A DNA stretch of 64,000 bases from Eukaryota sp. GEM-RC1. Taxonomy: Eukaryota. Both the position numbers and the translations under genes were made by a program. Of the stretch, positions 1-64,000 are shown one piece after another (the first letter of the stretch is position 1; each line of letters opens with the position of its first letter). The notes beneath the pieces were generated by a model that saw only the letters and a program-made list of their open reading frames with translations, ran no database searches and was not told the DNA's origin. Where the stretch lies: contig JAUFOQ010000004.1 of the NCBI GenBank assembly GCA_040285855.1, forward strand, positions 1,240,001-1,304,000, given 5' to 3'.

Positions 1-3000
1 TCACGTGATTCTTGATGACGTGTTAGTTTCTGAGTTCCAATTTTCACCCAATGGTTCCATAACTTGTCATTCTGATGTTTCGATGAGAAATGCTGTCGGG
101 CTTTCTGATGTTTCTTTCACTTTCAACAATACATTGGCTCTCCTTGATTCAACTGTTAGGATTGCCCCTCTGTTTGTTCTCTTTGATTTTCAAACTATGT
201 CCGGGTTTGGTACTATTGATACTAATATTTTAAATTTTGGAAAAATTCGTCCTTCATCTACCTTCACTTTTAACGACAACCTTTCTCTTGCTCCTTCTTC
301 AATCATCTCTCTTCAAATCAGTAACGACAGTTCTTCTACTCATTTAATTGTTGGTTCAACTGCTTATTTAGATGGAATACTAGAAATTGAATTTGACACA
401 AAGTCTGACTCAACCAGCTATAAATATACTCTGATAGAGTCTGATCAAATTAATGGAAGATTTAGAAGCATAATTAATCCTTGTGCTTCACTTATAACCA
501 CCTTTTATTCAAAGTCTTCTCTAATTGTCTCTGTAAATGATTTTGTAGTCGACTTACAACAAGGTTCTTACGTTTCACCTAGTGGTGTTGATGACTCTTG
601 TTGTGGTACTTTTGACAGTCCTTGTGCGTCTTTTAAAGGAGTTTTAGAAAGAATGGGAAGAAAAGGGAAGGTTTATTTCCATAGTGGTTACTATTTCTTC
701 AATCAAGGTTTCGGCAAATTAATTGATGTTGATTGGGAAGTTATTGGTCTCGGTGACGTGATCATTGATGGAAGTGATGATACTTTACTTGATAATGTTT
801 CGTCTTCTTTGACATTCCATAATTTAATTATCTACGGTAAAAATGTTGTTCTTGAGGTTTCTAATTCATCAATCAATTTTGATTTCGTGAGTGTTCTTTC
901 CATCTCTAATGATAGCCTGTTTTTGATTGAAAATTCCTCTTTTACTACAACAAACTCTCTGTTTGACATTGAATCTTTTCGTCTATTTGAATGTCTCAAA
1001 TCTTCAATTTTCGTTGACAATTCTTTTTTTTCCGGATCATTGTCTGACTCGTTAATCTCGTTGTCATCATCATCAATGATTGTTGACAATACAATTTTAA
1101 ACAACTTGAATGTTAGTAATTTGATTGTTTCTTCCACATCATCTATTAAAGTTAATCATTCCTCCATATCGCACGTAACTGCTAACACGGTATTTCTATT
1201 AGATCAGTCTGATATTGTCGTGAATATTTTAAGTATTGCATTTTTTTTTATAGTAGCTCCTCAACTTTTTCTCTAAACACTGTCGAAGTTGACCAATCAA
1301 TTTCTACTGTGTGGTTCAGTTTAGTCAATTGTAAATTTCACTTACAGAATTTGAATTTCTCAAATACTCACGGTGATGCTTTCAGTGTCGAAAATTCGAC
1401 AGCCTCCTCTTTATCTATGGTTTTGGTTGTTAATTCCAATCTATCCCACTTTCTCAACGTCTTAAATTCAGGATTGTCCATCAACTATTAATAATTATAC
1501 TCATGATGAAATTTCTGTGTATATTCCGTACCTTTGTGATATCACTTCTGTTACTTCTGATATTTATTTAGTTGTTGGGAACCAAATTAGTAACTCCTTT
1601 CAATTAAATTTTGCTCCTCCACAAGTTAGTTATCAGCCAGTACCGCTGTCTCCTTCTGGGGAATTAATAGTATTAACAGGACCTTATTTCTCAAAAATGT
1701 ATCATTGTTTTCAAAATTCATCTCTTGAATTGTCTGTTCATACTGCTTCATACGAAATTATTGATGAAGATGAATTGCAAATTTCAACAGGTGACTTGTA
1801 TGGAATTACTGAATTTGCAATTTCAGTAGAATTTTTCCTTCAATTCATTCGCCTAATTTCAATACCTGTCACTTCATTTGTTGCTAACAATACTGACTAT
1901 GTTTGTTTTGTCGGCGTTCCGTGTTCAATTACAATTTATAGTTTTCTGGACGACTTTTCATTTGTTAATACTTTTATTGGGCTAAATTCTCCGAACTCTC
2001 TTCATATTTCAAATTACCAAGTATCACCATCTTTTGCTGAAGTTACATTTACTTCTTTTATTTCTCGAGTTCCAACTGAATTACGTATTTGTATTAATTC
2101 TGCGTGTTACTCTATTTTCAATCTTCCTTTTATTGTCTCTCCCTCCTATATCTATCCCAAAAATATTCAATGGTTTGATAGGCCAGTTACTCACAGCCTG
2201 TCTATCGAAATAGAAGGAATTGATTTCTATGATGTTTCAATTATTCAAAGTACTTTCTCATTCAGTAATTCTGCTTTTCAATTAATTACAGTTGATGAGT
2301 CTACGGTTTACTTCGATGTAGAGTTTACTAGAACAGGGAACTTCACCCTACAGAGTCTGTCTTTTGGACATTTAAGTGATCATCTTTCTGTGGAGATTGC
2401 TAATTTTGTTCTTTTTCCACCAAAACTGTATTTTAATTCTGTTGTTGAGTGTTATCTGCTTGAATCTATCAATGATCTCTTTATCTCTTATGGAAGTAAT
2501 ACCTTCCCTCTTCACCAAGGAGTAAATATTTTAAATATTGAAAGTGCTAGTTCTTGGATTACTTTATCTAGTCTGTCAGAATCAGTCAATATTTGTTCTA
2601 TTTCTTCTTTTCCTAATGAAAACATTCCTTCAGTAATAGAAATCAATCTTTTTCAAACAATTCAAATTTAAATAACTGATCCCAATTATTTGTATTCAGT
2701 AGAGTGTTCTGATAATTGTGAATTGAGTACTTCAACTGATAATTCATATCACATTGAAATTATCTTTGTTGGATTAGATGAAGGAAACATTGATATTTCC
2801 TTCGTTGTTTGGTATTTCCAATCAAATTTCAATTTTGTCCATCATGTTTCGGTTCACCAACCTCCAGTACTGGAATTGTTGACCTCCTCTGTGATTTCTC
2901 TTTCCAATCCTCAAGCTATCATGATCTCTTTTAGTAGTGACTTCTTTCCAGATTCCATTTTCTTGGTTAATGATCTTATTTTAAATGCTACTGAAGTTAA

Positions 3001-5807
3001 TGACGTGTCGAGTTCTAATTTTGAATTAACTTACTTGTTTAATATCTCGTCATTGCACTTTTCAAAAGGACAAAGCTATCACCACTGGTCTTGGAAACAG
3101 TCTGGATTTAGCTTACAACACGTTGGTGTTATTGTTGTTTTCGATATTGAGGCTTTGTCTACAGATTTTGTAAGTGTTTTTGAACACCGTACAATTTCAT
3201 TAAATATTGTAGGTAATTTATACTCCGATTTAACTTGTTCTATTGACTCTCAACAATTCACAGGAATTACTTCTAACAATTCTTTGTTCTGTGAAGATGT
3301 CATTATTCCAACATATCAAGAGTTTGTTGATCTAGAACTTTCTTTTGATGGGGTACTCATCAACTCAGTTGAAATTCAAGGAGAAGCATTTCTCGAAGAT
3401 GTCTGTTTTGTTTCATTTGTCGAACATCCTAGGATTAATTTTACTAACACTTTTACGAATAACTTAATGTTTGATGGTATCAGGTGTTGTAATGTTGACG
3501 TGTCTTTTTGTTCCGAATTTATCTCGCAATTTGACTTGATCAATGCAATGTTTGATACTTCTTTTGATATATTTCAAATTGTGATTACTACAAACACTAG
3601 TTGTCACGAATCCTATTATTACCTTCCTTTTGAACTGATTGCTAAAAATCAAACGCTTTCCCCTGCATATTCTTGTAAACAAGTTCCCAGTGGTTTTGCT
3701 TTTGCTTCAATGTGTACTATTGATCTGGTAATTCCACGAACAACTGAAATTCTTTTAGTTGCTCTTGAAAATCTGTTTATATTGGAATTAGAAATTTATG
3801 GGCATGTATCAGATTCTTGTTTTAAACCCTTTTCTTTTGGACGTGGTATTACTGCTCTTGGGGAAGTGATTGATGAAGATGTATATCTGGGGTTTGAAAC
3901 TGCATTGTTTAACTCAACGGTACAGTTTGAATCGTTTATTTCTCAGAAAGAAATGTTTTGGTCCACTTCAACTGTTCAATTTTCTACTGGTTTCTCCTCT
4001 CCAAATTGTTTCTACTCATTTACACCTTTTCTTGTGACTCTGTCTGCTTCTGATCCGACTTCTTTGGTTTTCAGTCAAACAATTGTTGAAGTCAATTCAA
4101 ATTATTTAAGTATTTCAATTCCCATGGTTTGCGTCGATAATGTTGGATTTTTTGTTGATTGCAATGGCTCTATTGACATTATCGCCTCTACTTTTAAATT
4201 CAATTCTGTCGTTTTCTTTTCAGATAATGTAATCTTCTTCTTTAATGAATTACCTCAATTACAGGAACATCGAGTTGATTACGAATTCAATTCCAGACTT
4301 CTTAATTGGAATGGCACGTTAGTTCAAAACTGTGCAGAATATTTAACTGTCGATCAATTGAACGTTTCCTATTGTGGTCATCAATATTATGGAGACCAAT
4401 CATGTACTCTTTTGAACATTACCTCAAAGTTTGTAATTCAGGAACAGTTCTACAATCTTACTAGCGAAGTTCTTCTTTCTGATATTACTCTAGTTACTGA
4501 CATTGAAGCTGGTATTAATATTCTAGATGACCGTTTGCTGGAGTTAGTCACGTCTCCACTCCAATCAATGACGATTACACTCTCCTATTTTTCTCATACT
4601 GCGACTATTGATCTAGTTTCAAATGATTGTCACTTTCCTAAATTGAATTCTGGACATGGATGTTTGTGTCCAAAAGGAATGGAATTTAATTATCTTGGTG
4701 AATGTGTGGAATGTTTTCTAAATTATTACTCAAATTCAGAATTCAATTCAGAGTGTAGATCTTGTCCTTTTCCTAGAATTACTCTTCAAAAAGGTTCTAG
4801 TGATCTTGACCATTGTGTTTGTCCTTTAAACACTCTAGATTCTATAGATTCTTGTTTACCTTGTCCTCATTTAGCTGAATGTGGATATGGAAATTTGACT
4901 GGAATTGAACCTGGTTTTAGATTAAATACTGATACTTGGGAACTAGATGAATGTGTGTTTTGGTATAGTTGTCATGAAAATTCTTGCAGATCACGTCATG
5001 CTTATGGAGATTTGTGTCAATATTGTACTGAAGATGCTGTTTTCAGCAAGATTTACTGTTTTAGTAATGAAAATACTTGGTTAAAAGTATTATCATTTAT
5101 TTGTTTCGTTTCTATTTTATTTGTTGCTGATAGGCTACCTGTTCAACTTTCTCTTGTTGATTCAAAGTTCAAGTATATTGAACTGGCAGCGTCATCACTT
5201 TCCACATTTGGTCAAAGGAGATTATTAGAACAGCTTTCGAACTACTTTAATATTCTTAATATCTTCTTTTTGTTTTGCCTCCGATTTTCTTCCGCAGGGT
5301 GTCTATTTGGGGTATTGCTATTGAATTTATATCTTCTATATTTCATTTTGATTCGTCACGAATATTGATTGTTTTTGTTCTGGTCTCACTGTGTGGACTT
5401 TCAAAAGTTGTATTATCACAATTTTTTAAAAGTTCTAATTTCAATGTGAGACATAGTGCTTTCTTACTGGGAGCGGTTCTTTTCTCTATCAATTTTCTGT
5501 TTGGTGCATCACTTTTTTTTCTTAATCATGAAGGGCCATCATTTTGGCAAATTCTATTCCTGAGTTTTCACTTGAGTTTTTTAACTTATGTGTTGGTAGT
5601 ACAACGTCATTCTCCTTATTTCTTATCACTGGTATGTTATTTTGTCGTCATTTTTGCTTCATTATTTGAGAGTTCAATTTATTCTATAATTCAAAATCTC
5701 ATAGTAGTTATACTTATCAGTTTCTCCACTACTACTATTGAGGTAATTCTTTTGGAATTTCTCTTCTTTTTAGTGTGTCGTATACTGTTAGTTTCTTGAA
5801 ATTGTAG
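1..5807 (+). pseudogene. Giant surface-protein paralog A (5' part outside window): CCGTFDSPC region, TIG-like and stalk type 1, Cys-rich block, TM type 1; damaged
   Basis: ORFs 5-1276, 1309-1491, 1517-2671, 2690-5368 and 5275-5799 are collinear with copies B and C. Out-of-frame ~1.3 kb deletion at 1486/1487, a small deletion near 1235, and in-frame TAA at 2669-2671 where C has GAA. The true stop is probably TAG 5805-5807 (…FLKL*), as in B, after restoring one T near 5750. Confidence 0.85.
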
Positions 5808-5832
5808 ACTTTAGAGCATTGTTTATTGGCTC
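5808..5832 (+). repeat. Conserved 25-nt element right after the stop codon (ACTT-x-x-GAGCATTGTTTATTGGCTC)
   Basis: Same sequence at 19430-19454 (+) and 28360-28384 (-); flanks diverge beyond it. Confidence 0.85.
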
Positions 5833-6843: not shown

Positions 6844-9800
6844 ATGTTCTTGACCGTTCTCCTTCTATTCTTTTGCTGTTGGGCACATCCATCTGTTTAT
6901 CGCTGGAGTGCCACAGCTGGGTCTTTGGTTCGACAGTGACAATTGGGAAACTGCTACAGTCCCTTCATCGTCTTCTTATGTCATCATTCCTCCTCAAACT
7001 GTTTCAAGTAGGGTAGTTATTGCGTCAAAAGTCGATATAACCTCTCTCACAATTTCCTCTAATGTTGTGCTTCTTTTCACGAACAACTCCACACTCACAG
7101 TTTCTGAACAGTTTTCTATCATCAATGGATGTACCTTGAGTTCTGATCATACTTCTCCTCTCTCATTTTCTTCTGTAAAATCTCTTGAATTGGATTCTGT
7201 GGACCTTGTTACTTTCTCTTCTCACAAACTCATAGTCACTGGTCTCTTTGACTGGAAACGTGGTTCAATTGATCTACATGGGTTCAGTGAACTTGTTCTC
7301 GTCAATTCTACTTCCGCTTCCCATTTTACAAGTCATTCTCCACTAAGTTCTGATCTTCTTCATGTCTGGGGATTTAATCCCGAAGGTCATCTTGGAGGTG
7401 GCTTGCAAGAATCTTCTGATGGTATATCTCCTGAATCTTATACTTTACCTGATTCTATTAGACAAGCTTCTCTTGGAAGAATCCATTCTATGATACTTTT
7501 GATTAATGGTGACGTTTACACTGCTGGAAGTAATACTTTTGGAGAACTTGGATTCAATGGTGGCGGAAGAAATATTCATGGTAAAATTGATTTATCGCAC
7601 ATTATTCAAATTATTTCATCATCTGAATCAAGTTATGCGTTAAGTGTGTCAGGATCTGTCTATTCTTGGGGACGTAACAGGAATGGCCAGTTAGGTATAG
7701 GAGATCGACTAATCAGACATACCCCCACTTTAATTCCAAATTTAAGTAACATTAAACAAATTGCTGGTAGGTATCTAACAGTTTTTGCTTTAACTAGAAA
7801 TGATGAAGTTTATGGGTGGGGTGCTGGGGCCAACAATGTTTTATGTAGTGATAGTACTAGTAATGTTCTTTCACCGTTGCTAATTGAATCTTTACAAAAT
7901 ATTAAATTTGTTGCTGCTGGCCTCAGTTCCTTCTTTGTTAAATCTAATGGATCGACTCTTACTTGTGGTTTAAGATTAGGTGAGACTGGATTCTATTCAA
8001 CTCCAACTCCATTTGCTAAGGATATTGAGTTTACGTTTATTGATACTATATATCTTCACGCTCTTGGCATTGATGTTAACCAGAAGCTATGGAGTTGGGG
8101 TTCGAATAGTCTTGGACAATTAGGAACTGGTGGGAACGCGGCTTCTGCAAGTCCGGTTCAAGTAACAAACATCGGGAAAGTCATCACGTCAGCTGCAGGT
8201 TGGGGACATTCTATTGCTGTTGACGTCAGCAATGACGTGTGGTCTTGGGGTTATCCAGAGGAGGTGTTGGGTAGGAGTTTTCCACCAAATTTGAATGAAT
8301 CAAATCCTGGCTTGATTCCTGGTTTATCTCCTATTATTTCCGGAATTAGTGCATATCATGGGAGCAATTTCGCATATTCTTCAGTTTCGGTTGTTGTGAA
8401 TTCAGTGGGGTCGTCTTCAAGTAACTCTAAAATGATTTTAAAAGGAAATAATGACATCTTGGGAAAAGTTAATGATAATGGCCTTCAACAGTTTAATCTT
8501 ATTTCTGTTCCAGTTTTTCTTTCTGGTTCATTGAATTTGACAAGTGATTCTTTCTATTTTCTGTCTGAATTCAATTTAAGTGGGCTTTTGTCTATTAATT
8601 CTCTAGTGGAAACTTATTTCACTTCATTTTTCTTAGGAGCTTCTGAATGTTCAACTCTTTCTTTAGAGTCTAATGTTTTTGTTGAAACTTTGTATTGTTA
8701 TTGTGGAACAATTGAAGGTGTTGGAGAATTGACAGTAAACACGTTGGTGTTTTGTTCTTCTAATCCTGAACTAAAATTAAGTAGAATTTCTATTGGTAAA
8801 ATGATGACTTCTGAATTAAATGTTGAATTTAATCTGACTACTGATTTATTAATTTCTATCAATGGAATACTTAAAATATCACAGGTAACTTTCTACTCTG
8901 ATTCGGATGTAACTGTTACTTTTGGTGGAAATTTAAAGTTGGTCAACACTTCATTGACTCTTCACATCGATTCTCGGCTAAATTCAAATATTCAATTTGA
9001 CCAAAATTCTAAAATTCAAATCACTTCCTCTTCTTCTAGTCTTGGATCAGTATATCCATTGTTTCTTTATTATGACTGGTCAGAAAGTCCTTCTGGAGAT
9101 GATCTTTCTGGTAATAATAATAATGTACTAGAAGTTTCTGGTGCTCAATGGAATCCTGATGGTTATTACCAATTTGAAATTGCCACTAACGTTATCAAAG
9201 TTCCAAATATTTCAGGTAAATTCGGCTGGGCATCAGCTACAATTTCATTTTCAATATGGTTTGACTCTGATTCTACCAATAGATTTGGATTTATTACTAA
9301 TCCTTCTGGTTGTGGATTAGTCCTTGGAGATCATTTATCTTTTGGTGATAAAACTATGAAAGATCTGTCAATTCCAAGAAATCAATGGATCTCCTTGATT
9401 GTTACTACAGATCATAATGGAGCTCAAATGTATGTTAATGGAGCTCTGATTGCTTCTGTCAACGGCAAGTATGGCTGTGATGAGTTTTCTGATTTCTTCC
9501 CCCTGGGATCTGTCTATTACAAGAGTGGGAATGACTGGGTAGGCTCTTCTGATCAGTTTTTTAAGGGTAGAATTAGAAGAGTTGCTGTTTTTACAGAGAA
9601 ACTTTCTGAAAGTGAAGTTGAAGCGCTGTCTAAAACTCAATTAGTATCGTTAACTCAAATATTTGGTGACGGAAGTATGGTTATTGAAAACTCTTCATTT
9701 CGCGTAAACTCATTGTCGACATTAAGTTTAAACAGTCTTTATTCCTATAATTCTTCTTTATTTATTGTTCCATCTGCTTTCTTTGGAGTCGTCAATACTG

Positions 9801-12800
9801 TTGCCAAAGAAGATTCAACCATTGAAATCCATGGCCGTTTCCTTTCTTCTGACTTCTTCCTTCCCAATCTTGAGTTAGAGAGTTCTTCATTTATTTCAAC
9901 TACTTTAGAGCTTCATTTTGATGTTATTTCTTTTTTAAATAGTGACTTTAGTTGTGACTGTTATTTAGAGGCTTTAGTTGTCTATTGGTTTGATGGTATC
10001 TTGACTCTAAGTGAAGCCAAAGTAAACGTCATCAATCTTTATGGTAACGAAAAGGTTTTACTAATAGAATCATTGACAATTACAGAGGAGGTGTTTTTTA
10101 ATAATTCTCTTACATTACATTCAAATAATTCTCAATTAATTCTTGATTCAGTAATTGTCAAGTGTACTGCGTTATCCTCTCTTTTCTTGTCTTGTTCTTC
10201 TGACTGTACTTCTGCTGAATTAAAATTTTCCAATGCTTTTGTATTGTCTGAATATTGTTCATTTGTTTCTAACTTTGATATCTCAAACTGCGCACTGTTC
10301 AGTCTGTTTTCATATTCCTTTTCCAAACAGAGTCTGTATTTACTTCTCACAATGTCCTTCAAATTGACGAACACGCAGAATTCTCTGTTGTTTCGTCCGA
10401 GTTTTCAATTGAAAGTGTCATTGATTCGTCTGACCCGTCCTTATTTATGTACTACAACTGGGCATACTCACTGAATAAAATAGACTTATCAGGAAATCAT
10501 GGTCTCAGTGCAATCATAATTCATGGGCCAGTATGGGAAAGTGATGACAATGGTGGTTATTTGAAAATCACACCTGGTAATACATTACTTATCCCAAACC
10601 TTCCTGGTGCCACAGGTTGGACGGGAACAACAATATCCTTATGGATGAACATTCAAGCAGGGGGTTTGGGACTGGATTTTGGTGGGTCATGTCGATTGAC
10701 TATTGAGCCTAAACGAGTTTGTTGGGGCACATTGTGTTCAACTGTACATTTTCCAACAACTTGGTTCCATTTGGCAATTAAATTTAGTCCATTCGATTCT
10801 TTAAGAACCATGCCTCGGGTTTTTATCGATGGAAGCTATAGAAATTCTATTGGTGCAGGGCATGGATATCATTGTACCAACCCTCCATCTCATTTCTCAC
10901 TATCAAGGATTCATCCTTCGGGTTCACAATTTCGGGGTATGATTCGTGCAGTTCAAGTGTTTCGCAGAATTTTATCAGCTCAGGAGATAGCCAACTTAGA
11001 ACTTAGCTTTCCAGCAGGGGTTTGGGGTCAAGGAAAGTTCTCTTTTATCAACTCTCATTGTGTTCTTTCTTCCATGTACTTTGAAATCCGCTATATGTCA
11101 TTAAATTCGTCATTCTTTCAATCAGGAGCCGTTATGCTTAGGCATCTTGAAGAACTTGACCTTAGTTCTAATTCAGAGATTGTCTTTGTTCATAGTCACG
11201 ACTTTGACTTTGATTCTACTGGTCTTGTTGTCTTTTTAGACTCAAGCAAACTTCGTTATGAAGTAATTGATTCTGCAACCAAGGTTCTTATTGATTCAAT
11301 TTATCTAACAAATACTTCTTCAATTATTACTGATGCGTCGCTTGTTATAAGTACTTTTCATTGGTTTCAGGGTGCGTTGTTTTCCCCTGGTGTTACATCC
11401 TTACAAAGACTGTTTCTTTATGGTGATTCTAAAACATGGGTTGCGGATTCGTTGATTATTGAAAATGAATTGTATTTCAATAATTCTCTTTCTTTTTAAT
11501 TTCTCATCTCAAGTTAATTACTGTTTCAGTTACTTGTTTTCCTGGTTCAGATCTTGTTCTTAATTCATCACTTTTTAATGAACGTTTACTTGAAATCAAG
11601 AACCATTTTCATTTAACTTCTAATTGTTCTCTCACTTCATTGTTACCAGTTCAAAGTACTGGAATTATTACTGTTTCAAATGACTCGATAATGACTCTTA
11701 AGAAGGCATGGGAACATAATCAAGGGGAGTTTCTGGGATTGGGAGAATTACGTTTACAACAATCTAAAGTGTGGCTTTTGGATGTTGTCTTTGGCATCAG
11801 ATCTATTACTTCTTCATCATCTATTTTAAATTTTGATAATTTAAATATTCAGGATACTGTTCTATTTGAAATTAGTGATTATTCGTCGCTCACTTTGTCG
11901 TCTACTCTAGAAGTTTCAACTGGTCACTTGACAATAGCTCTTATCGACAGTGAGCTCTTCTTTAATCAATCAGTGATCTCATCATCGTCAACAATTTGTT
12001 TAGCTGCATTCCATAGTTTTGTTCAATTGATGATGCCGCAATTTCATTTTGATTCTGTTAATTTCAATTTATCCATACTGGAATTGGTCAATAGTAGTGA
12101 CATTGTTGTTGAATCATTGTCATGTATTGATTGTTTTGTCCTTGGAACTCATCTGCTCTACGTTAACCATAGTTCATACATCAATTCGGGAAAGTTCTCT
12201 CCCTTTATACTTGTTTCTGAATATGCACAATGTTCATTCATTACTGGTCAAGTCTATTTGACTCACTCATTTGATTTCTACAGTCACGTGATTCTTGATG
12301 ACGTGTCAGTTTCAGAATTCCTGGTTTCTAGTGGATCCATCATTTGTCATTCTGATGTTTTGATGAGAAATACTGTGAGTATTTCCAATGTTTCGTTCGT
12401 TTTCAAAGACACATTGTCTCTTTTTGATACAATTTTTCTTTTTGATCCGCTCCTTGTTCTCTTTGATTTTCAAACAATGAAAGGATTTGGCACCATTGAT
12501 ACTAATATAGTTAATTCTGGAATTATTCGTCCATCACCTTATTTCAAATTTAACGACAACTTGTCTCTTTCTACTTCTTCCATCATCTGTATTCAAATCA
12601 ATAACACTACTTCTTATGATCATTTAATTGTCGATTTAACTTCTTTTTTAGATGGAATACTAGAACTAGAATTTGAGACAAATTATGATTCAACTGGGGA
12701 TAATTATACTCTCATAGAATCTGGTCTAATTAATGGTAAATTTAGTAATATAGTCAATCCTTGTGCTTCACTTATAACCCCGTTTTATTCAGAAACTTCT

Positions 12801-18800: not shown

Positions 18801-19429
18801 GACTGGCAGCGTCATCACTTTCTACATTTGGTCAAAAAAGATTATTGGAACAATTTTCAAATTACTTTAATATTCTTAATATCATCTTTTTTGTTTTGCC
18901 TCCGATTTTCTTTCGTAGGGCGTCTATTTGGGTGATTTTCATTGAATTTTTATCTTCTATATTTCATTTTGATTCGTCACGAATGTTGTTTGTTGTTTTT
19001 ATGGTCTCAATGTGTGGACTTTCGAAAATCGTATTATCACGATTTTTTAAAATTTGTAATTTCAATGTGAGACATAGTGCTTTCTTACTAGGAGCGGTAC
19101 TTTTCTCTATCAATTTTCTGTTTGGTACATCACTTTTTTTTCTTAATCATGAAGGGCCATCATTTTGGCAAACTGTATTTCTGAGTTTTCACTTGAGTTT
19201 TGTAATTTATGTGTTGATAGTACAACGTCATTCTCCTTATTTTCTATCACTAATATGCTACTTTGTAATCCTTTTTGCTTCTTTATTTGAGAGTTTAATG
19301 TATTTTATAATTCAAAACCTTATGTTAGTTTTGCTTATCAGTTTCTCCACTACTACTATTGAGGTAATTCTTTATGGAATTTCTTTACTTTTCAGTATGC
19401 CGTTTACTTTTAGTTTCTTGAAATTGTAG
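6844..19429 (+). pseudogene. Giant surface-protein paralog B, full length (~4,190 codons): signal peptide, RCC1 propeller (~7360-8380), LamG (~9060-9640 and ~10443-11030), beta-solenoid, TIG-like, stalk type 2, Cys-rich, TM type 1
   Basis: ATG 6844 gives MFLTVLLLFFCCWAHP (signal-like). RCC1 motifs VYSWGRNRNGQLGIG and LWSWGSNSLGQLGTG; LamG motifs WISLIVTTD…MYVNG…FKGRIRRVAVF. About ten homopolymer frameshifts plus two in-frame stops: TGA 14502-14504 (TGT in C) and TAA 15396-15398 (TCA in D). Confidence 0.85.
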
Positions 19430-21059: not shown

Positions 21060-21669
21060 GAGACATAAGTTTTAGTGCAAAAACTACTTTATACACCATA
21101 TTTACTCTAAAGTTGAACCAGTTTTGAATCATCTTTCAGAAAATGAATGTACTGATCAACAAAGAGGACATCTCCATTCTCCGTGGCTAAATTCGAGTCA
21201 ATCATTAATGGATTTTACTCCAGTAGATGTTTGTAACAAATCTTGCGTTAGTAGGATGTTGGATTCTTCTTTTAATCCGTTAACAGCTGCTGAAAAGCTC
21301 AAACACTCTAAGTATGACTCTCAAGTTGAAGAATTAAATCGAAACTCAAATTCCAAATTTGTGTTTCAACCTTTTGCTGTTTCTCTTTTTGGATCTATTA
21401 GTCCTGTTGGTGATCAATTTTTCAAGGATGTCGAAGAACTGTGTAAAGAAAAGAAGCGTAAGTTTGTAAATGACTGAATGGAAAAACCGTATAGTGTTTT
21501 CCATATATCGGAATATGCCTTTCTATTTCCCTCGATTAATTGAGAAATTGTACAAGTTTGGTGTGAAGGTTAATGTTTAAAAACGTAATCTTTTACCGGG
21601 TGGTGATGAAGTCGTTTGGATTTAATCATAGTATTATTTGTTTGTTTTTACAATTTCATAGTTTTGTAG
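21060..21669 (+). mobile_element. 3' remnant of an RLE-type (CRE/R2-like) non-LTR retrotransposon, including a putative T-rich 3' UTR
   Basis: HIYSKVEPVL…QRGHLHSPW…MDFTPVD…AAEKLKHSKY…FQPFAVSLFG follows the EP…RxD…W…D-x-T…(E)xxKxxKY…FxP…G pattern of RLE domains. After a frameshift it continues as WKNRIVFSIY. Confidence 0.75.
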
Positions 21670-27243: not shown

Positions 27244-27412
27244 GTCGTCGAAATCCTTGAAAAATTGCTCACCAGCAGGACTAATCGAGCCAAAAGAGAA
27301 ACATCAAAAGGTTGAAACACAAATTTGGAATATGAGTTTCGATTTAATTCTTCAACTTGAGAGTCATACTTAGAGTGTTTGAGCTTTTCAGCAGCTGTTA
27401 ACGGATGAAAAA
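27244..27412 (-). mobile_element. RLE retrotransposon fragment, inverted near-copy of 21270-21437
   Basis: PLTAAEKLKHSKYDSQVEELNRNS-x-SKFVFQPF is shared almost base for base with the plus-strand copy. Confidence 0.85.
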
Positions 27413-27689
27413 AATTAACTATGAAATGAACTGCACAATTCGGAAAAGTAATTATCACCATGCAACTTGGCTAAAATGGAATAAACATATCTATACATTG
27501 ACTTAAAAATCGAAAAAGGAAATTTACTCTTCCAGTACGATCTGTAACACTTCTTGCCAAATTTTGAACACTGAACACAAATTGTCAAACAAATTTAAAA
27601 ACCCGCAGTAGAAGAACGAAATTTCCGTATAATGAAACCAATAATAAAAGGCTGAAAGACAATATTATTGGGTCTTCGTGAATATAATA

Positions 27690-51800: not shown

Positions 51801-54800
51801 TTCTTTCATTGTTCAAGAATCAGCAGATAATAACTGGATCACTGGTCAAGTTCAATTGGCTAAGTCCATGGATTTCTTCAGTCACGTGATTCTTGATGAC
51901 GTGTCTGTATCAGAATTACAGTCTTCTATTGGATCCATCACTTGTCATTCTGATGTTTTGATGAGAAATGATGTCAGTATTTCCGTTGTTTCTTTTGTTT
52001 TCAATGATACTTTAATTCTTATCGATTCAACTTTTCTACTTGACATGATGCTTGTTATCTATGATTCTCAAACTATCACTGGATTTGGTACTATTGTTAG
52101 TAATTTTTTAAATTTTGGACGGCTTCGTCCTGATTCCATTATTGCATTTGAAGATGTTGTTTTTCTTTCACTTTCATCCATTGTTTCTTTTCAAATCAAT
52201 AATGATAGTTGTTACACCCAATTAGCAGTGAATTCCACTGTTTATTTAGATGGAATTCTAGAAGTAGAATTTGACTCGAATTTTCAATCAACTGATGCTA
52301 ATTTTACACTTATTCGGTCTAATCAAATTATCGGGAAATTTAGTCATATCACCAGTCGATGTGCTTCAGTATTAACTACTTTTTATTCAGATACGTCTCT
52401 TTCTGTTTCTTTAAATGATATTGTACTAGATCTTAATCAAGTTTCTTACATTTCTTCTTCTGGTGTTGATGATCCTTGTTGTGGAACTTTTGACAGTCCT
52501 TGTGCTTCTTTTAAAGGAGTTTTAGAAAGAATGGGAAGAAAAGGAAAGGTTTATTTTCATAGTGGTTACTCTTTCTTCAATCAAGGGTTCGGCAAATTAT
52601 TTGATGTTAATTGGGAAGTTACTGGTCTCGGTGACGTGATCATTGATGGAATCGATCTCGTCTTTCTTGATGCGGTTTCATCTTCTTTGACCATCCAAAA
52701 CTTAAAGTTTTACGGTAATAATGTTCTTTTGAAATTTGTAATTCATCAATCAATTTTGATTTTATGAACTTTCGTTCTGTCTCCAATGATAACCTGTTTC
52801 TAATGGAAAATTCCATTTTTCGCTTCACAAACTGTTTGCTTGATATTGATTCTCTTCGCCTATTTGAAGGTCTCAAATCTTCCATTGTTGTTGACAATTC
52901 TAGTTTTTCCGGATCTTTGTCTGACTCATTAATCTTGTTATCATCATCGTCATTGCTTGTTGACAATTCACTTTTTACCTACTTGAATACTAGTAATTTG
53001 GTTTATTCTTCTTTTACTTCTATTGAGTTCAGTCATTCGTCAATAATGGAAGTTACTGCTAACTCGGTATTTCATTTAGATCAATCTGATATCGTCTTGA
53101 GTGATTTAAATATTACTTCAGTTTCTTCAAAAGAATTTGTTTGCGGTAACTTATCAACTATTTTTCTGAGTTTGATCGAAATTGATCAATCAATTTCTAA
53201 TGTGTGGTTCAGTTTAATCAATTGTATATTCCACTTAAATAATTTGAATTTCTCTAGTACTCACGGTGATGCTTTCAGTGTTGTAAATTCAACGGACTTC
53301 TTTTTATCTATGGTTTTGGTTGTTAATCCAAACTTATCTGTCTTCCTTAACGCCTTAAATTCAGAATTGTCCATTTATCTTCTTTCTCTTTTCAACTGCA
53401 CAGGAAGTATACTAGAACATTCTGTCAATAGCTCAATTACCACACATAATTTGACCGTTACTGACTCACTATTTGATACTTTGTTTTTGTTATCAGATTC
53501 GTCCTTGAGTTTATCTTTGGGTAACATTGGTTCATCGTCGTTTAATAATAGTACACTTGTGCTTTATAACTCTACCCTGGAGGTGGAAGAGGTTACCATT
53601 GATTTGGTTTCAACTTCTATTTTATTAGAGTCAATGGAAAGTACTAGTACTTTTGAGAATGTTATTATACGTAATTATGATTTTCTCCAGTTTTTGGTAT
53701 TAACCAGATCTAAAGCGAGTTTCTACTCTCTGTCTATGGATCGTTGTCAACTTTTTGAATTAGATTATTCAATTTACGACATTATTTTAATTGAATCTTT
53801 TATAACACTGGAAAAATCTTATCTTTCGGGATGTGTTTCTAATGAACAATTTAAATTGAGTTTATATTCAGAACAATCTTTTCTCCATTTACTTGCTTTT
53901 GACCAGGAATTCTTCTTTTCTTCAATAGTTTTGGACCATTCCAATATTACTATAATGTCACATGTTTCAGTAATTTCAAAGTCTGTTTCCATTGATGAAG
54001 AATCTATTATCCTTGGGAATGCTCCATTACTAGATCTTTCGTTTTTAATTTCAAATATTTCAATTTCTCCTTCGCAACACTGTTGTAACACGTCTATCTG
54101 TCAGGTTTCTCTGAATTTCAATAATATAGGATATATTTCAGAGTTACTGGAACTTGCAGTTCCTAATAATGATGAATTCTACCACAACTTCTTATTGAAC
54201 TCTCTTGACTTTTTTTTTAACCGACATTATTACTTTCAATCCAATGAATAATTCAATTTATTTTAATTTAGGTTTTTCCAGAATATTTTCTTTTCATCAC
54301 CTATTCGTTCCTATGTGTCCTATTGAGTTTGTTAGTCTAGAACCTCCAACTAGAGGTGGATATGTACCACTGTTTGCTTTTAATCTTGGATTAGATCCTA
54401 TTGTTATTCATCATTCAACTGCATGGGTCAATCAAAGTCTCGAATATTCTTCAAGTAATCATGAAAATTTAAATATTTTATTTTTTGAGGGTCATGGGTG
54501 TCATGAAATGGTCATATCTAGATCAACTGATACGGAGACGTTGTTCTTTCTTTACTGTTTTAAACAACCTATCATTCATTCTGTAACTCCAAATCCTTTC
54601 CCTTTAACCGGATCACTGATTTTAAAAGGATCAGATTTCTCCACAGATTTTGAATTTTTCTCTTTACTTTCAACTTTTCCACAAACAGTTGTTTCTAATT
54701 ACACTCATGATGAAATAATCTTGTATATCCCTTATATTTGCGACATCACTTCGGCCACATTTGAAGTATTTCTAGTAATTGGAAATCAGTCTACTAATAT

Positions 54801-57800
54801 TTTCCAACTTGTTTTTGGACCACCCAGAGTTACTTATTACCCTATTCCTCTTTCGCCTTCTGGTAAAACGATTTTTCTTTATGATACCAATTTTTCCAAA
54901 ATGTTCAACTGTTTCGACAATTCATCAATTGAATTTTCTGTTGACACGTCCTCTTTTGAAGTTATATCTGATCATCAAATAAAGGTTATAACTGGTTCAC
55001 TATATGGATCTACTGAGTTTGTAATCGCTTTCCAATATTTCAAAGATTTCAATTTTTTAATTTCTATACCGGTGACGTCATTTGTCGCTAGAGATACTGT
55101 GTTTATTTGTTTCGTAGGCTTTGCTTGTGAACTTGAAGTATACAATTATTTGGAGTCCTTTTCGTTTCTTGAAACTTTCATTGAACCTAATGTACCTGAT
55201 AGTATTTACTTTCTTTATTTTGGTTCAACCGAATCATCTGCTTCTGTTACATTTATTTCTTATGTACCTGGAATACCACAAGATCTAAAAATTTGCTCCA
55301 AACTTGGATGTTTTTCTATTTTTAACTTACCGTTTGTCGTTCAACCGGCTTATTTATCTCCAAAGCATGTCCAATGGTTAAATGAACCTATAACTACTGA
55401 AGTTCTTGTTGAAGTTGAGGGTATTTCATTTTACAGTTTCTCTGTGATTCAAAACAGTTTTCATTTTGACAATTGCTCATCTATACTTTCTGGTTTCTCT
55501 GAATCTTCCCTAATTTTTGATGTTGAGTTTTCTAGTATGGGAAATTGTACTTTAATAGGAACATCATTTTTAGATATTTTACCTTTAAGCCTTTCAGTTG
55601 AAGCCAAGAATTTTCTTATTTTTCCCCCAGAAGTTAGTTTTAATTCACGCATTGAGTTTACTCTTGTTGAAGATATTAAACATCTTTTTATAACCGTTGG
55701 GAGTCAAGCTGTACCTGTTAACAATGGGGCAAATATTTTAAATTTACAAGATGCTTCTACATTTATCACTCTTCACAGATTCTCTCAGTCAATGAACATC
55801 AGTGTTGTTACCTCTATGTTTTACTCAGAAATTCCTGAGGTAATTGAGCTCAATAATTCTCAGTCAAGCCTGATTGATTTAAGAAATATACTTTATCGTT
55901 TAAATGTACGTTGTCTTGGTTTCTGTGATTTACACTCGAAGTATATACATGAATCAGTTCCAATTATCTCTTTTACTGGATTTGAGTCCGAAACAATTAC
56001 TTTGGAGTTTATTATTCTTTATCTTAATTCCAATTTCAACTTTCGAATTCCTATAGTAGTAGAAAATCCTCCAGTGTTTGAACTTATAAGTCCAAATGTT
56101 GTCACAACATCTGAAGATTCTCTTCTAGAAATTTTGAGTTTCTCACATTTTGTCATAACAGGATATTTTTTGATTGATGATTCTGTTATTGAACCTACTA
56201 ATGTTGAGCTCATCTCCAGTTCTGATTCCTTCTTTGTTTACAGATTTGATCTGAATCTTACTTCCATGTCAGTGTTTGACGGTGAATATGCCCTAGATCT
56301 TTGTTGGTCTCAGATAGGATTCAGAAGACAGCTTGTTTCAGAAATTAAATTCTTCAATTTGGAATTCAGCAGTAACGATCACGTCAGTGTTTTTGAACAT
56401 CGTGATATTTCTGTTGACTTCAAAGGAAATATTACTTCAAACGTGACTTGTTCTATTGATGACCAAACCTTCTTCGGACAAGTCGTTGATCACGTGCTGG
56501 TTTGCAAGAGTGTCCGAATTCCAACTTTTCAGCAACACGTGTCTGTTGACATTTACTATGATTACTTTCTTTTGAATTCTTTTGAACTTTATGGTGAGGC
56601 TTTTTTGGAGGAGATATGCTTCAGCTCATTTACACATCACCCTGTGGTAAATTCTTTTGAGATTAATTCAAATATGAAAACAAATTTAATATTTGATGGT
56701 TCAAGATGTTGTAGTGTTGATGTTTCTTATTGTTCAGAATTCTTTTACATTACCGAAATGGTTTCTTTTTTCTTTGAATCTAATTATGACATTCATCACA
56801 TCATAATCACGTCTAATTCTAGTTGTCAGGGCATTGACTCTGGTTTTCCTTTTGCGCTGATTGTCAACAATCAATCTCTTTCCACTTCCGTTTCTTGTAA
56901 ACAAATTCCTAGTGGTTATTCATTTGCATCAATGTGTGAAATAGATTTAATCTTAGCAAATACTTCTGAAATTACTCTACTACCTTTAGATGACGTTTTT
57001 TTACTAGAAGTAGAGTTTTATGGTTACAAATCTAATTCTTGTTTTAAACCTTTTCATTGGTAAAAGGAGTAACTTCTCTAGGACAAATAATTGACGAAGT
57101 TATTCATTTGCGATTTAATAATCAATCATATTATTCAATTTCAGAATTCAAACAATTTGTGGTTGATAAGACAACTTTCTGGTCATCATCATCTCTATCT
57201 TTTCCCACTGAGTTATATTCTTCTTATTGTTATTATTCTATTGTTAGTCATCCAACTGTTTTTACTGCGTCGTCAGCAGTATTTGTGATCTTTCTAGCTG
57301 ATGTTGTAGAACTAAATCCTCAATATTTGAATATTTCAATTCCGATATTGTGTGTCGATCCTTTGAATTTCGTTGTTGACTGTGGTGATATGTTTACAGT
57401 AATGACTTCAACATTTGAATACTTGAAATTTGATGTCATTTCCAATTCATTGATTTTCTTTTTATCGAATATGATCAATCTTGGGGAACATTCGTTCTTA
57501 ATTACTTACAATCAAAGTCAGTTTTATTGGAATGTGAATGTTATTCAAAATTTTAATGAAATATTTGAAGTTGGTCATTTTAAAACTACTAGATGTGATC
57601 ATCACTATACCTCTGATAATGCATGTACTTTATTGGACTTCTCATCTAAATTGATAATTCAAAATCAATTTTCTAATTATTCGAAAGCCATTATGTTTTC
57701 AGATTTAAGTATTGCTCTTGAAGTTGCGTCTTCAGTTTTACATGTCGTTAATGAATCCACGTTGCAGATTATTGGACCTCCACGTCAGTCAATGACGATT

Positions 57801-59024
57801 ACAATTTCCTATTTATCGCATTCTGCTACTAGCAATCTGGTATCCAATGATTGTCACTTTCCTAAATTGAATTCTGGACATGGATGTTTATGTTCAAAAG
57901 GAATGGAATTTAATTCTCTTGGTGAATGTGTGGAATGTTCGCTAAATTATTATTCAAATTCAGAATTTAATTCAGAATGCAGATTTTGTTCTTTTCCTAG
58001 AATCACTCTTCAAAAAGGTTCTAGTGATCTTGACCAATGTGTTTGTCCTTTAAACACTCTAGATTCTGTAGATCATTGTTTACCTTGTCCTCATTTAGCT
58101 GAATGTGGATATGGAAATTTGACTGGAATTGAACCTGCTTTTAGATTAAATACTGATACTTGGGAACTAAATGAGTGTGTGTTTTGGTATAGTTGTCACC
58201 AGAATTCCTGCAGATCACGTCATGCTTATGGAGATTTGTGTCAATATTGTACTGAAGATGCTGTTTCTAGTCGAATTTACTGTATCGGAAAAGAACATTT
58301 ATTTTTTAAAATTCTTCTATTCATGTTTTTTGTTGTAGTTCTGTTTGTTGCAGATGTGCTCCTCATTGTCTTTCTTCAATCAAAAGTATTGTCACGTGCT
58401 TTGCGATTGTCCATCTCTTCTTTATCGTTTTTCCGATCATCTCAAATTTTGAAGCATCATTTAAATTATTCAAATATTTTGAATGTCTTTCTTTTCTCAG
58501 TTTCAGTCTTCAGTTACAAAAGAGTTTCCTTCAGTTTAATTTTTCTTGAGTATGTTTCATCTCTGTTTTATTTAGATAAGTCAATGATATTGTTACCTTT
58601 AATTGTGTGCTCTCTGTCGTTTTCTTCAAGATTTTGCTTAACAGAATATTTTAAGTTCAAAACTTTTAATATTTTCCATAGTTCCTTCTTTACTGGAGCT
58701 GCCTTTATTTCACTAAATTATGTTTTTGGAATGACTTTGTCTCATTTCTTTAGTCAACAATTGCCATTTCTATTATTTATTTTTGTTTTTATTCATATTA
58801 TTTTTGTTTTTTATGTCATATATGCTCAACGAACACTCCCTTATATCTTTTCACTTGTTGCTTATTGTGTCATAATCTTTGCAGAGTTGCTGCCCAGTTT
58901 AATTTATTTCATTGTTCAAACAGTTTCATTGATTTGTCTTTACTGTGTTTCTACTTCTTTTGAACGAGTTGTTCTTGGAATTAGTTCTTTAGTTTGTGTA
59001 CATAATTTCATGGTGTATGTTTGA
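45838..59024 (+). pseudogene. Giant surface-protein paralog D, full length (~4,390 codons) with three LamG domains (~48025-48610, ~49397-49985, ~50757-51340), stalk type 2 and a divergent TM type 2
   Basis: MIAIILILCCCAFAS signal, collinear with B and C. Many homopolymer frameshifts, a ~10-nt deletion near 48735, and in-frame TGA 49985-49987 (GGA in B). Confidence 0.85.
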
Positions 59025-60185: not shown

Positions 60186-60548
60186 ATCTCAAAAGTTGCT
60201 GCATTTATGGTTTTGTATTTTGACGATCACCGCTTCTACTAAAAGTTTTAGTCCAAAACTGGAAAGAAATTCCGATGCAAGTGCAGCATCAAGTGAAGTA
60301 CAACATCTTGGAAACGTTTGTTAGGATCCGCTTCCCACCTTTAATTCCATAATAAGCAACAGTAACCCGGCACTGTTGTTCAGCATTAGATGTAGAATCA
60401 AAAGAGAACATTATATAAAAGAAGAAAAAGTTTGGGAAAAAGATGGAAATTTATTGGGAGTATGTATCTGAAGTGAAAAGCACTGTGTACATTGTAGTCA
60501 AGACCTTCCAGTCTATATCCTGAACCATAATCCCGACAATTCAAGACC

Positions 60549-63500
60549 ATGGTCGTGGTCTTTCTTCTCCTTTGCTGTTATACTTATGCCTCAAATTGTC
60601 GATGGAATGTCACGACTGATGGATTTTGGTTTGACAGTAACAACTGGGATCGAGGTATCGTTCCCTCTCAACATTCTTTCGCTATTCTCCCACCTCAAAC
60701 CGTTCTTTTAACAGCATTTGTTGAATTCAAAGTTGATATAACGTCTCTCGCTCTGTCCTCCAATGTTGAGCTTTTTTTCACCGATAACTCTACCCTAACC
60801 GTGTCTGATAGCCTTGTCATGAATGGGGGTAGCTTAAGCACCGATACATCGTCTCCTCTCTCTTTTTCTTCTGTTAAATCTCTCATTGTGGATTCTGTTG
60901 ATCCTATTACTTTCTCTTCTCACAAACTCATAGTCTGCATGATTGAGTCATTCCACTGCTGTTGACGTTAATAATGACGTGTGGTCTTGGGGTAATCATT
61001 TCGACGGTGCTCTAGGTAGAACTACTACCTCTCCTAATGAAAGATTCATTCCAGGTCGTATTACTCATTTGGAGAACAAAGAAATTAGTGGTATCAATGC
61101 ATATTATAGGTCTAATTTTGCTTATAGTTCACAGTCTAGTGAGAAGGAAAATTTTCACTTATCAATTCAGAAGTACAGTTATATTCCTCGAAGTTCGACG
61201 TTAGAACAATTTCTCTAACATACTCGACTCTTTATTTAAATGACGTCTATTTTAACAATTTAAAATTCTTCGAATTATTGGCTAATTCATCAGTAAATGT
61301 AACTAGTGACTCCAAAATTGCTTCTGATGATCTAACTATCACCTTAAATTCAAGTGATCTCTACTATGATGATTCAGTCGACATATCGTCATCAAGTGTC
61401 AGTTTGATTGCTATCAACAGTCGTTTCCAGAATGATTTTGACTTTGATAATATCCGTGTTTTAGATTTATCCTTTTCAACTTTTGAGTCAGCTTCAAGTA
61501 TTCATATCATTGTTGGGTACTTCTCTTGTTTTCATTGTCAACTACTTGGAAACTCTTCGTTGTTGACAGAAACATATTCTGAGATTAATTCAGGGAATTT
61601 CTCATCTTCATTAGTTGTTACACAATCAGCAGATACTAATACGCTCATTGGTCAAGTTCAATTGGCGAATTCTATTGATTTCTTCAGTTACGTGATTCTT
61701 GATGACGTGTCAGTTTCAGAATTCCAGTCTTCGATTGGGTCCATCATTTGTCATTCTGATGTTTTGATGAGAAATGTTGTAGCTATTTCCAGTATTCCGT
61801 TCGTTTTCCACAATGCATTGATTTTATCTGATGCAACTGTCTTTCTTGATCCGCTCTTTGTTCTCTTAGATTTTCAAACTTTGAAAGGCGTTGGTACTAT
61901 TGATACTAATATTTTAAATTTTGGAAGAATTAATCCTTCTTCTACATTAACTTTTAATGACAATCTTACTCTTTCCTTTTCGTCCATAGTAACTCTTCAG
62001 ATCAGTAACGACAGTTCTTCTACTCAATTAATTGTTGGTTCAACTGCTTATTTAGATGGAATACTAGAAATTGAATTTGACACAAAGTCTGACTCAACCA
62101 GGTATAATTATACTCTGATAGAGTCTGATCAAATTAATGGAAGATTTAGAAGCATAATTAATCCTTGTGCTTCACTTATAACCACCTTTTATTCAAAGTC
62201 TTCTCTAATTGTCTCTGTAAATGATTTTGTAGTCGACTTACAACAAGGTTCTTACGTTTCACCTACTGGAGTTGATGATCCTTGTTGTGGAACTTTTGAC
62301 AGTCCTTGTGCTTCTTTTAGAGGAGTTTTAGAAAGAATGGGAAGAAAAGGGACGGTGTATTTCCATAGTGGTCACTATTTGTTTAATCAAGGTTTCGGCA
62401 AATTAATTGATGTTGATTGGGAAGTTATTGGTCTCGTTGACGTCATCATTGATGGAAGTGATGAGACTATACTTGACATTATTTATTCTTCTTTGACCTT
62501 TCATAATTTAATTATCTACGGCAAAAATGTAGTTTTTGAGGTTTCTGATTCATCAATCATTTTTGATTTCGTGAGTGTTCTTTCCGTCTCTAATGATACC
62601 ATGTTTTTAATTGAAAATTCCTCTTTAACTACAACAAACTGTCTGTTTGACATCGATTCTTTTCGTCTATTTGAATGTATTGAATCTTTACTTTTCATCA
62701 ACAATTCTAGTTTTTCCGGATCATTGTCTGACTCGTTAATCTCGTTGTCATCATCGTCAATGATTTTTGACAATACACTTTTTAATGACTTGAATGTTAA
62801 TAATTTGGTTGTTTCTTCCTCTTCGTCTATTAAACTCAATCATTTATCAATAACGGAAGTAACTGCTAACACTGTATTTCAATTACATCAGTCTATTATT
62901 CTCATGAATAATTTAATTGTTTTTTCAATCTTTTCAAAAGACTTTTGTTTATAGTACGTTCTCAATTATTTCTCTAAATACTCTCAAAGTGGATCAATCA
63001 ATTTCTACTGTGTGGTTCAGTTTAATCAATTGTAAATTCCACTTACAAAATTTGAATTTCTCAAGTATTCACGGTGATGCTTTTAGTGTCTTAAATTCGA
63101 CGGACTCCTCTTTATCTATGGTTTTGGTTGTGAATTCGAACTTGTCCATCTTTCTCAACGTTTTAAATTCAGGATTGTCCATCAACTCTCTTTCTCTTTT
63201 CAACTGTATAGGAAGTATACTAGAATCTTGTGTTAATAGTTCAATTACCACACAGAATTTGGCCATTACTGATTCATTATTTGATACTTTGTTTTTGTTA
63301 TCAGACTCGTCCTTGAGTTTATCTTTGGGTAACATTGGGTCATCGTCGTTTAATAATAGTACACTTGTGCTTTATAACTCTACCCTGGACATGGAAGAAG
63401 TTACCATTGATTTGGTTTCAACTTCTATTTTCTTAGAGTCTATAGAAAGTAATAGTACTTTTAAGAATATTGTATTACGTCGTTATGAGTTTCTCCAGTT

Positions 63501-64000
63501 TTTGGTTCTAACTCTGTCCAAAACTAATTTTTTTCTCTATTCATGGATCGTTGCCAACTGTCTGAATTAGATTTTTCAGTATATGATATTTTTTTAATTG
63601 ACTCGTATCTAACTCTGGAAAAATCTAATATTTCTGGATGTGTTTCTAACCAAGACTTTAAGTTGAGTTTATATTCAGAAAAATCTTACCTGTATTTTCA
63701 TAAGTTTGATCAGGAATTCTACTTTTCTTCATTGGTTTTAGATCATTCCAATGTCTCAATAATGTCATATTCCCCAGTAATTTCTAAGTCTGTTTTAATT
63801 GATGAAGAATCTATTATAATTGGTAATGCTCCATTACTAGATCTTTCCAGATTAATTTCGAATATTTCGATTTTTCCTTCACAACACTGCTGCAACACGT
63901 CTATTTGTCAAGTTTCTCTGAATTTTGATAATATCGAGTATCTTTCAGAGTTACTAGAACTCTCAATCCTTAATAATTTTCTTATTTTTCCACCAGAGGT
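60549..64000 (+). pseudogene. Giant surface-protein paralog E, internally deleted, running off the window
   Basis: MVVVFLLLCCYTYAS signal. Jumps at ~60935 (skips most of RCC1), ~61138 (skips all LamG domains) and ~63976 (skips the TIG-like region), plus homopolymer frameshifts near 62935 and 63530. Confidence 0.85.

Follow-up and report, generated by a model that had tools for sequence, protein, structure and literature searches.

Segmental gene conversion between the members of a gene family produces antigenic variation in Trypanosoma (VSG mosaics), Anaplasma (msp2) and Borrelia (vlsE), and the VSP and HCMP proteins of Giardia and the BspA and Pmp-like proteins of Trichomonas form large, lineage-specific, expanded families of cysteine-rich or beta-helix surface proteins with many pseudogenes and recombination between paralogs. 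The locus described here is a stretch of 64,000 nucleotides (nt) of Eukaryota sp. GEM-RC1 (assembly GCA_040285855.1, contig JAUFOQ010000004.1, positions 1,240,001 to 1,304,000), hereafter the window, in which five paralogs of one 12-kb gene, designated copies A to E, lie in a tandem cluster, with A and E cut by the window ends. A first-pass annotation made from the letters alone had proposed that these copies form a repertoire of giant receptors in which one expressed gene is diversified from an archive of damaged donors. The explanation that we favour, and consider probable, is a tandem cluster of five skoliomonad-specific giant membrane-protein paralogs that evolve by birth and death, with ectopic gene conversion between them; a family that recombines and decays in the ordinary way is more likely than a programmed variation system. 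Like the VSG, msp2 and vlsE systems, the cluster has defective members and mosaics formed by transfer between copies, but its members are whole genes with their own starts, the transfers are old, the copies have been under purifying selection and the host is free-living. Like the Giardia and Trichomonas families, it belongs to an expanded, lineage-specific set of recombining, putative surface proteins, and it is unlike them in its plan of RCC1, LamG, predicted beta-helix-like and Ig-like regions, Ephrin_rec_like and ~7 helices over ~4,000 amino acids (aa). A tandem family with gene conversion and decaying copies is common behaviour, and the cluster illustrates clearly how paralogs can recombine at the level of modules.

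The source organism is a skoliomonad metamonad, described in PMC11316075 and PMC11603281 as Skoliomonas sp. GEMRC, an anaerobic, bacterivorous, free-living flagellate of soda lakes. PMC11316075 gives the genome as assembled with Canu from R9.4 Nanopore reads, followed by polishing with Nanopolish and with Unicycler and Illumina data, and as 48% repetitive, with fragmented BUSCOs amounting to 9.6% (29) in the predicted proteome versus 3.0% (9) in the transcriptome. The contig that carries the window is 2,818,101 nt long. The G+C content of the window is ~33% and its genetic code is the standard one; alternative codes were considered and rejected, the frames being neither closed nor lengthened by table 6 or table 4.

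Mosaic structure went far beyond what chance would produce. Pairwise identity in sliding windows ranged from 53% to 98% for one and the same pair of copies, and the closest pair within the B/C/D triplet changed from B-C to B-D and back to B-C (chi2 931.7, 40 degrees of freedom, p=2e-169). Heterogeneity was also found for the A/B/C/D quartet (p=5e-62) and the A/B/C/E quartet (p=0.00012), and it was not significant for B/C/D/E (p=0.066). In a GENECONV-like permutation of polymorphic sites (2000 shuffles), a check that the first-pass annotation had called for, the longest shared runs of BC, BD, AB, AC and CE exceeded those of all 2000 permutations; within the 3-kb block common to B, C, D and E, the runs of BD, CD and BC did not exceed all 2000. 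Synonymous divergence (dS) varied from 0.2 to 1.5 within a pair: for A and B it was ~1.5 in the stalk, against 0.22-0.26 in the flanking regions, and the stalk dS of A and C was 0.09-0.13, versus ~1.5 for A or C against B or D. The claim that the copies are mosaics rather than uniformly diverged duplicates is therefore borne out by the pair switching, by the range of dS and by the conflicting trees described below.

Two stalk types were distinguished, as the first-pass annotation had reported. Type 1, with the motifs APPQVSY...GELIVLTGPYF at A 1613 and C 32584, is 93-98% identical between A and C, whose identity to B and D is no more than 53-66% there; type 2, with the motifs GPPRVTY and NFxIFPPEV at B 15216/16006 and D 54817/55609, is 69-84% identical between B and D. 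That annotation had also placed E in type 2, an assignment that was not confirmed because the window ends upstream of the stalk region of E. The two types of transmembrane tail were likewise recovered: at the DNA level A, B and C have tails with 87-90% identity to one another and D stands apart at ~53%, and in protein the tail of D is 40% identical, versus 76% for B against C. Shorter conversion-like tracts are present as well. The B/C tract given in Table 1 is 94.9% identical over 809 columns, either copy being ~83% identical to D, and a second one (C 39485-39888 with B 7209-7612) is 96.0% identical versus 79%.

Module trees, to which paralogs from elsewhere on the same contig were added as extra taxa, were discordant, which is the outcome the first-pass annotation had anticipated. 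In the tree of N-terminal modules, D groups with GEMRC1_009398, a paralog at another locus that repeats the module types of the window (support 100/99); in the stalk tree, A, C and GEMRC1_009398 group together (100/100) and B and D form a separate clade (100/100); in the tree of transmembrane tails, D stands apart from the B/C group, the A row being disregarded since it is read in a shifted frame and has a long branch. Approximately unbiased (AU) tests rejected the opposite groupings with p=0.0018, 0.0004 and, twice, 1.6e-5, these groupings having been chosen after the identity profile and the free trees were known. The copies are mosaics in which modules of different ancestry are demonstrable; the mechanism would be recombination or gene conversion between the copies.

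The exchanges are old on an evolutionary scale, because identity within the shared tracts is ~95-98% rather than 100% and no pair of copies has an exact match longer than 356 nt (A and C), that of C with B, D or E being at most 111 nt. Over 154-3381 columns, identity in the best of these tracts is 94.5-98.3%, the shorter conversion tracts covering 154-809 columns at ~95-98%. The copies have been under purifying selection in the past: the ratio of nonsynonymous to synonymous differences (pN/pS) was 0.39-0.61 in all seven pair and segment tests (binomial p from 0.005 to 2e-29), which take in the young A-C pair and segments downstream of breaks in the reading frame, and the corresponding ratio of substitution rates (dN/dS) was 0.21-0.72 in all 61 pair and segment rows, computed on chained frames. 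Since both ratios are below 1, and are so on both sides of the breaks, the copies were coding genes during most of the time over which they diverged, and whatever decay there is must be recent.

Tandem and dispersed paralogs, segment-wise discordance, and purifying selection alongside decaying members are the features by which birth-and-death evolution accompanied by ectopic gene conversion is recognised, and all were found. In the history that we propose, the cluster would have arisen by tandem duplication over evolutionary time, and one inversion would have given copy C, which is inverted relative to the other four. LamG and propeller modules would have been gained and lost, and whole cassettes would have been exchanged, the stalk (~3.1 kb) and the transmembrane tail (~0.7 kb) among them. 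These exchanges and the shorter tracts would be due to ectopic recombination, or to gene conversion, among family members that share a chromosome, and several members would now be decaying.

Table 1. Coordinates of the five gene copies, their modules and the neighbouring genes, in positions of the window.
Feature	Position	Strand	Remarks
Copy A	1..5832	+	5' part outside window; type 1 stalk, type 1 transmembrane tail; damaged
Copy B	6854..19429	+	RCC1 propeller, 2 LamG, type 2 stalk, type 1 transmembrane tail; damaged
Copy C	28393..40252	-	Signal peptide, RCC1 propeller, 2 LamG, type 1 stalk, type 1 transmembrane tail; least damaged
Copy D	45838..59024	+	Signal peptide, RCC1 propeller, 3 LamG, type 2 stalk, type 2 transmembrane tail; damaged
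Copy E	60549..64000	+	3' part outside window; signal peptide kept; corresponds to GEMRC1_008228; damaged
Type 1 stalk cassette in C	29640..32710	-	Counterpart A 1487-4553
Type 2 stalk cassette in B	15100..18173	+	Counterpart D ~54700-57777
Type 2 transmembrane tail, D only	58356..59024	+	Similarity of D to A, B and C ends at 58355
Conversion-like tract B/C	C 36921..37728	-	Counterpart B 9360-10168
Multi-pass C-terminal membrane region of C	28396..29190	-	Follows the Ephrin_rec_like cysteine-rich module
TmcB-like gene	21673-25688	+	5'-truncated; between giant-gene copies
LRR_6 (RNI-like) gene	42205-43722		505 aa; between giant-gene copies

The presence of five giant paralogs, as first announced, was confirmed, and when read through their breaks B, C and D encode ~4,190, ~3,950 and ~4,390 aa, respectively. 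A is homologous to C at 88.7% over A 1-1486 and 93.4% over A 1487-5832. Copies C (ATG at 40252), D and E have an ATG and a signal-peptide-like start of their own, and neither was found in B at the position matching these starts; complete transmembrane tails are present in B, C and D. The copies are full-length genes and not promoterless cassettes, because C, D and E keep an ATG and signal peptide and the full-length copies keep the tail. LamG content differs per copy, in line with the first reading of the sequence, with two module starts each in B and C, three in D (48023, 49395 and 50757) and none in E. In E, the N-terminus (60549-60956) and a remnant of the propeller (60949-61212) are joined directly to the middle region from 61143, so that most of the RCC1 propeller and all LamG modules are gone.

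Breaks, defined as a frame change or an in-frame stop along the chain of open reading frames (ORFs) as assembled, numbered 34 over the five copies (A 4, B 9, C 7, D 10, E 4). Copy A has a 16-nt deletion near 1238, a ~1.31-kb deletion at 1486/1487, a GAA>TAA nonsense substitution at 2669-2671 and a single-base deletion (T6>T5) near 5267; the 16-nt and ~1.31-kb deletions jointly restore the frame (1>0>1), and the ~83 codons between them are shifted yet open. Copy B has a TGT>TGA nonsense substitution at 14502-14504, a lost start and a series of single-base deletions, and copy D a 2-nt deletion (in the interval 46223-46311), a 10-nt deletion (in the interval 48715-48742), single-base changes and a GGA>TGA nonsense substitution at 49985-49987. 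Copy E has two large deletions and two single-base changes. Three of the copies (A, B and D) thus have nonsense substitutions, and two (A and E) have kb-scale deletions. All seven breaks of C are single-base frame changes, six of -1 and one of +1, located near 36994 (T6>T5), 36075 (T4>T3), 34668 (T5>T4), 34497 (a complex site), 33707 (T5>T4), 32915 (T6>T5) and 30847 (T9), and C is the only copy with neither a nonsense codon nor a multi-base lesion. Damaged copies beside a less damaged one had been described in the first-pass annotation and were found; its statement that only C looks intact could not be upheld, C changing frame seven times as assembled, though it is the least damaged of the five.

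Four single-base lesions are each common to two copies at the same alignment column, twice in C and D (C 36994 with D 49044-49089, C 34668 with D 52722-52764), once in B and C (C ~32915 with B ~14890) and once in B and D (B 17444-17474 with the 48-nt interval 57048-57060 of D), and at three of these four sites another copy with the same local context stays in frame. Such lesions may either have spread by conversion or mark sites of systematic base-calling error. Two other causes of the breaks were considered. Introns were rejected, as paralogs read straight through each break and the difference amounts to one base or a short deletion. Phase variation at T-runs, or programmed ribosomal frameshifting there, is only remotely likely, the breaks being mostly private to one copy and the runs short (T3-T6, one T9).

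Homologs were sought among 1.84 billion representatives, of which 51 were related at E<=0.001. All 30 relatives that were looked up belong to three Skoliomonas genomes (29 carry an NCBI name, and P0131 is the tail of B itself). Besides the copies in the window, 25 named GEM-RC1 family models lie on eight contigs, 12 of them on the 2.82-Mb contig of the window. In a sister species, Eukaryota sp. TZLM1-RC, seven giant models (P0150-P0155 and P0159, among them KAL0213657.1 with 3,937 aa) are spread over several loci. They are 2,446-3,937 aa long, carry one to three N-terminal RCC1 propellers ahead of a long middle region and align to the C-terminal ~800 aa of C at 24-28% identity. Ephrin_rec_like was found in six of the seven and Laminin_G_3, at E<=0.001, in none; since TZLM1-RC has one to three propellers and no detectable LamG, the tip of the receptor varies between species as well as between paralogs. 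These giants share the overall plan of the window's proteins and, unlike them, lack LamG and are modelled without interruption; none has been characterised. Among metagenome contigs, 180 pattern matches contained no relatives. No paper on the domain combination was found in a full-text literature search; the family is new and unnamed, with all relatives found annotated as 'hypothetical protein', and its evolutionary behaviour is of a known kind. Both the giant receptors and the TmcB-like proteins (P0122, P0124), a gene for one of which lies in the window, have only truncated models in GEM-RC1 and full-length ones in two sister genomes, and the truncated models of the two families reflect either base-level assembly errors or unusually widespread gene decay in this isolate.

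Several observations weigh against a decaying family. All 34 breaks rest on an assembly that PMC11316075 describes as polished Nanopore sequence. As read from the alignments, ~16 of the ~26 single-base breaks fall in homopolymer runs of at least four bases, versus ~9% of bases, an excess that Nanopore error would leave just as natural slippage would. Both ends of the protein are present in none of the 25 GEM-RC1 family models outside the window, versus seven of the eight TZLM1-RC models examined. Should residual indel errors indeed be present, C may be intact, perhaps along with other copies, and 'decay' would be overstated. In the extreme case, all or most copies would be intact functional genes of an expanded, expressed family with conversion and without pseudogenes, the breaks being residual Nanopore errors. 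This is unlikely, although it has more in its favour than the other alternatives: the single-base breaks are mostly deletions in T-runs (six of -1 and one of +1 in C), the data are R9.4 Nanopore reads assembled with Canu, fragmented BUSCOs number 29 in predictions versus nine in the transcriptome, GEM-RC1 has no full-length family model, yet the sister species has intact giants, and pN/pS stays under 1 both before and after each break. A search for read-through proteins from independent assemblies, made with the C ORF that lies between two breaks, returned only two GEM-RC1 models.

Other lesions are, however, atypical of homopolymer error, namely the nonsense substitutions (A 2669, B 14502, D 49985), the 16-, 10- and 2-nt and kb-scale deletions and the lost start of B. 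Several breaks lie in short runs (T4, T5, C3) or where C is distinct enough from its paralogs that short reads should map uniquely, and three of the four shared lesion sites have a copy of the same context in frame. The neighbouring TmcB-like gene is truncated in a manner that homopolymer error does not explain. Nor is the break rate of 0.5 per kb genome-wide, because the model of GEMRC1_009398, which comes from this assembly too, runs over 3,238 aa with almost no gaps against C. Of the five copies, at least four are likely decaying pseudogenes; where that status depends on single-base breaks it is presumptive, and for C the chances that these breaks are real or errors of assembly are nearly even. 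In Nanopore-based protist assemblies, 12-kb frames break so often that 'pseudogene archives' need reads to be called.

Programmed diversification, in which one expressed copy (C or one elsewhere) would be rewritten by segmental conversion from a defective archive in the manner of VSG, msp2 and vls, was the central proposal of the first-pass annotation and we consider it very unlikely. Mosaic paralogs and damaged copies do lie side by side, A, B, D and E having nonsense codons or multi-base out-of-frame deletions as assembled, as the members of a pseudogene-rich archive would; C alone lacks nonsense codons and multi-base lesions; and the shared single-base lesions would show sequence moving between copies. 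C nevertheless has seven frame breaks as assembled, the copies are complete genes, C, D and E with their own starts, and not partial cassettes, and the supposed donors were under purifying selection until recently. Segments identical to a donor were not found among the copies of the window, these sharing at most 356 identical bases and tracts of ~95-98%, as expected of old exchanges, and no recognisable expression site was seen within the window. In the sister species, intact paralogs are dispersed over several loci, as in an ordinary multigene family, and PMC11603281 presents the host as a free-living bacterivore with no known immune pressure. A narrower version, in which the breaks of C are assembly errors and C or another site is the single expressed gene, its propeller/lectin tip, stalk and membrane cassette being rewritten from an archive by somatic recombination, is a shade less probable still; if true, no free-living, non-parasitic protist would have shown programmed diversification of a surface receptor before, and it would serve prey or kin recognition. 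Least credible of all is that the mosaics are chimeric misassemblies of a repeat array, as might be feared of a 48% repetitive genome assembled from long error-prone reads, since a chimera should be nearly identical to its sources, whereas every segment is 4-20% diverged in DNA from its nearest relative (the stalk of B ~20% from that of D, its flanks 4-15% from those of C), no more than 356 identical bases are shared and the same module types recur at the GEMRC1_009398 locus.

The protein encoded by the recombining family is predicted to begin with a signal peptide and to have an RCC1 propeller and none to three LamG modules at its tip; a long beta-rich region follows, then an Ephrin_rec_like module and ~7 helices as the tail. 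The RCC1-like propeller (PF25390 / PF00415; RCC1/WD40_RLD) scored 169.9 bits in B, 201.5 in C and 172.7 in D (Pfam cut-off 150), Laminin_G_3 (PF13385) 45.3 in B, 44.2 and 41.3 in C and 38.6 in D (cut-off 27.6), the second module of B falling slightly under the cut-off at 27.2, and Ephrin_rec_like (PF07699) 29.3 in A, 27.0 in B, 23.8 in C and 26.5 in D (cut-off 23.1). An Amnionless-like N-terminus (PF14828) gave a sub-threshold signal of 21.6 in C and 25.5 in D, below the cut-off of 30.4 and over the first 70 profile positions only. The middle region is probably a right-handed beta-helix, to judge from sub-threshold matches to Pfam Beta_helix (E=0.009 in A, 0.54 in C) and from Atlas feature matches of 0.77-0.82, which are leads only. 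The stalk is predicted to be beta-helix-like and Ig-like, with an Eph-like cysteine-rich module next to the membrane.

The C-terminal 821 aa of C, as modelled with AlphaFold2 (AF2; mean predicted local distance difference test score, pLDDT, 82.4), comprise tandem beta-sandwich domains, a cysteine-rich module and ~7 long helices; the helical tail folded alone had a mean pLDDT of 70.9, and a hydropathy scan of the membrane region of C gave seven segments. In Foldseek searches the beta part of the model matched the ectodomains of Eph receptor, invasin and S-layer proteins at E=6e-6 to 1e-4 with low TM-scores. It resembles these tandem Ig/FN3 adhesion ectodomains (EphA4 4m4p, invasin 1cwv, S-layer SbsC) as a string of beta-sandwiches, which in the window's protein ends in an Eph-like cysteine-rich module; the TM-scores, however, are only 0.10-0.15 by query, a kinase domain is absent, and the protein has a multi-pass tail instead of a single helix. 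The tail had no match in a Foldseek search of the PDB at E<=0.001 (best E 1.3), and the best VIA Z of 7.5 was within helical noise. Adhesion G protein-coupled receptors (GPCRs) likewise carry a very large modular ectodomain on a tail of ~7 helices, which is predicted here; in contrast to them, the window's protein matched neither a seven-transmembrane (7TM) family nor GAIN/GPS in the Pfam scan, and its tail had no significant fold match. From its domains, the protein may act at the surface of this bacterivore as a receptor for adhesion or recognition. With ~4,000 aa and a tip of propeller and lectin modules, it could reasonably be what a bacterivorous flagellate uses to recognise prey or surfaces, and few gene products of this newly sequenced, deep-branching anaerobe are as large.

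Existing annotation covers the giant genes in fragments. P0129 (11691-14501) and P0131 (the transmembrane tail) match copy B at 100%, and P0130 is identical to 61146-62951 of the window (GEMRC1_008228) except for a predicted first mini-exon. A Pfam scan of nine intergenic ORFs gave no matches at E<=0.05. Within the TmcB-like gene, ORF 21739-24822 matches P0121 at 100%. This copy lacks the first ~388 residues of its orthologues in two sister species, changes frame at 24816/24831 and is flanked by 171-nt inverted repeats (21267-21437 and 27245-27414) that are 93.6% identical; transposition or duplication of part of a gene may have produced it. The LRR_6 gene has an internal tandem period of 84 nt (28 aa), seen as self-matches at ~65% identity.

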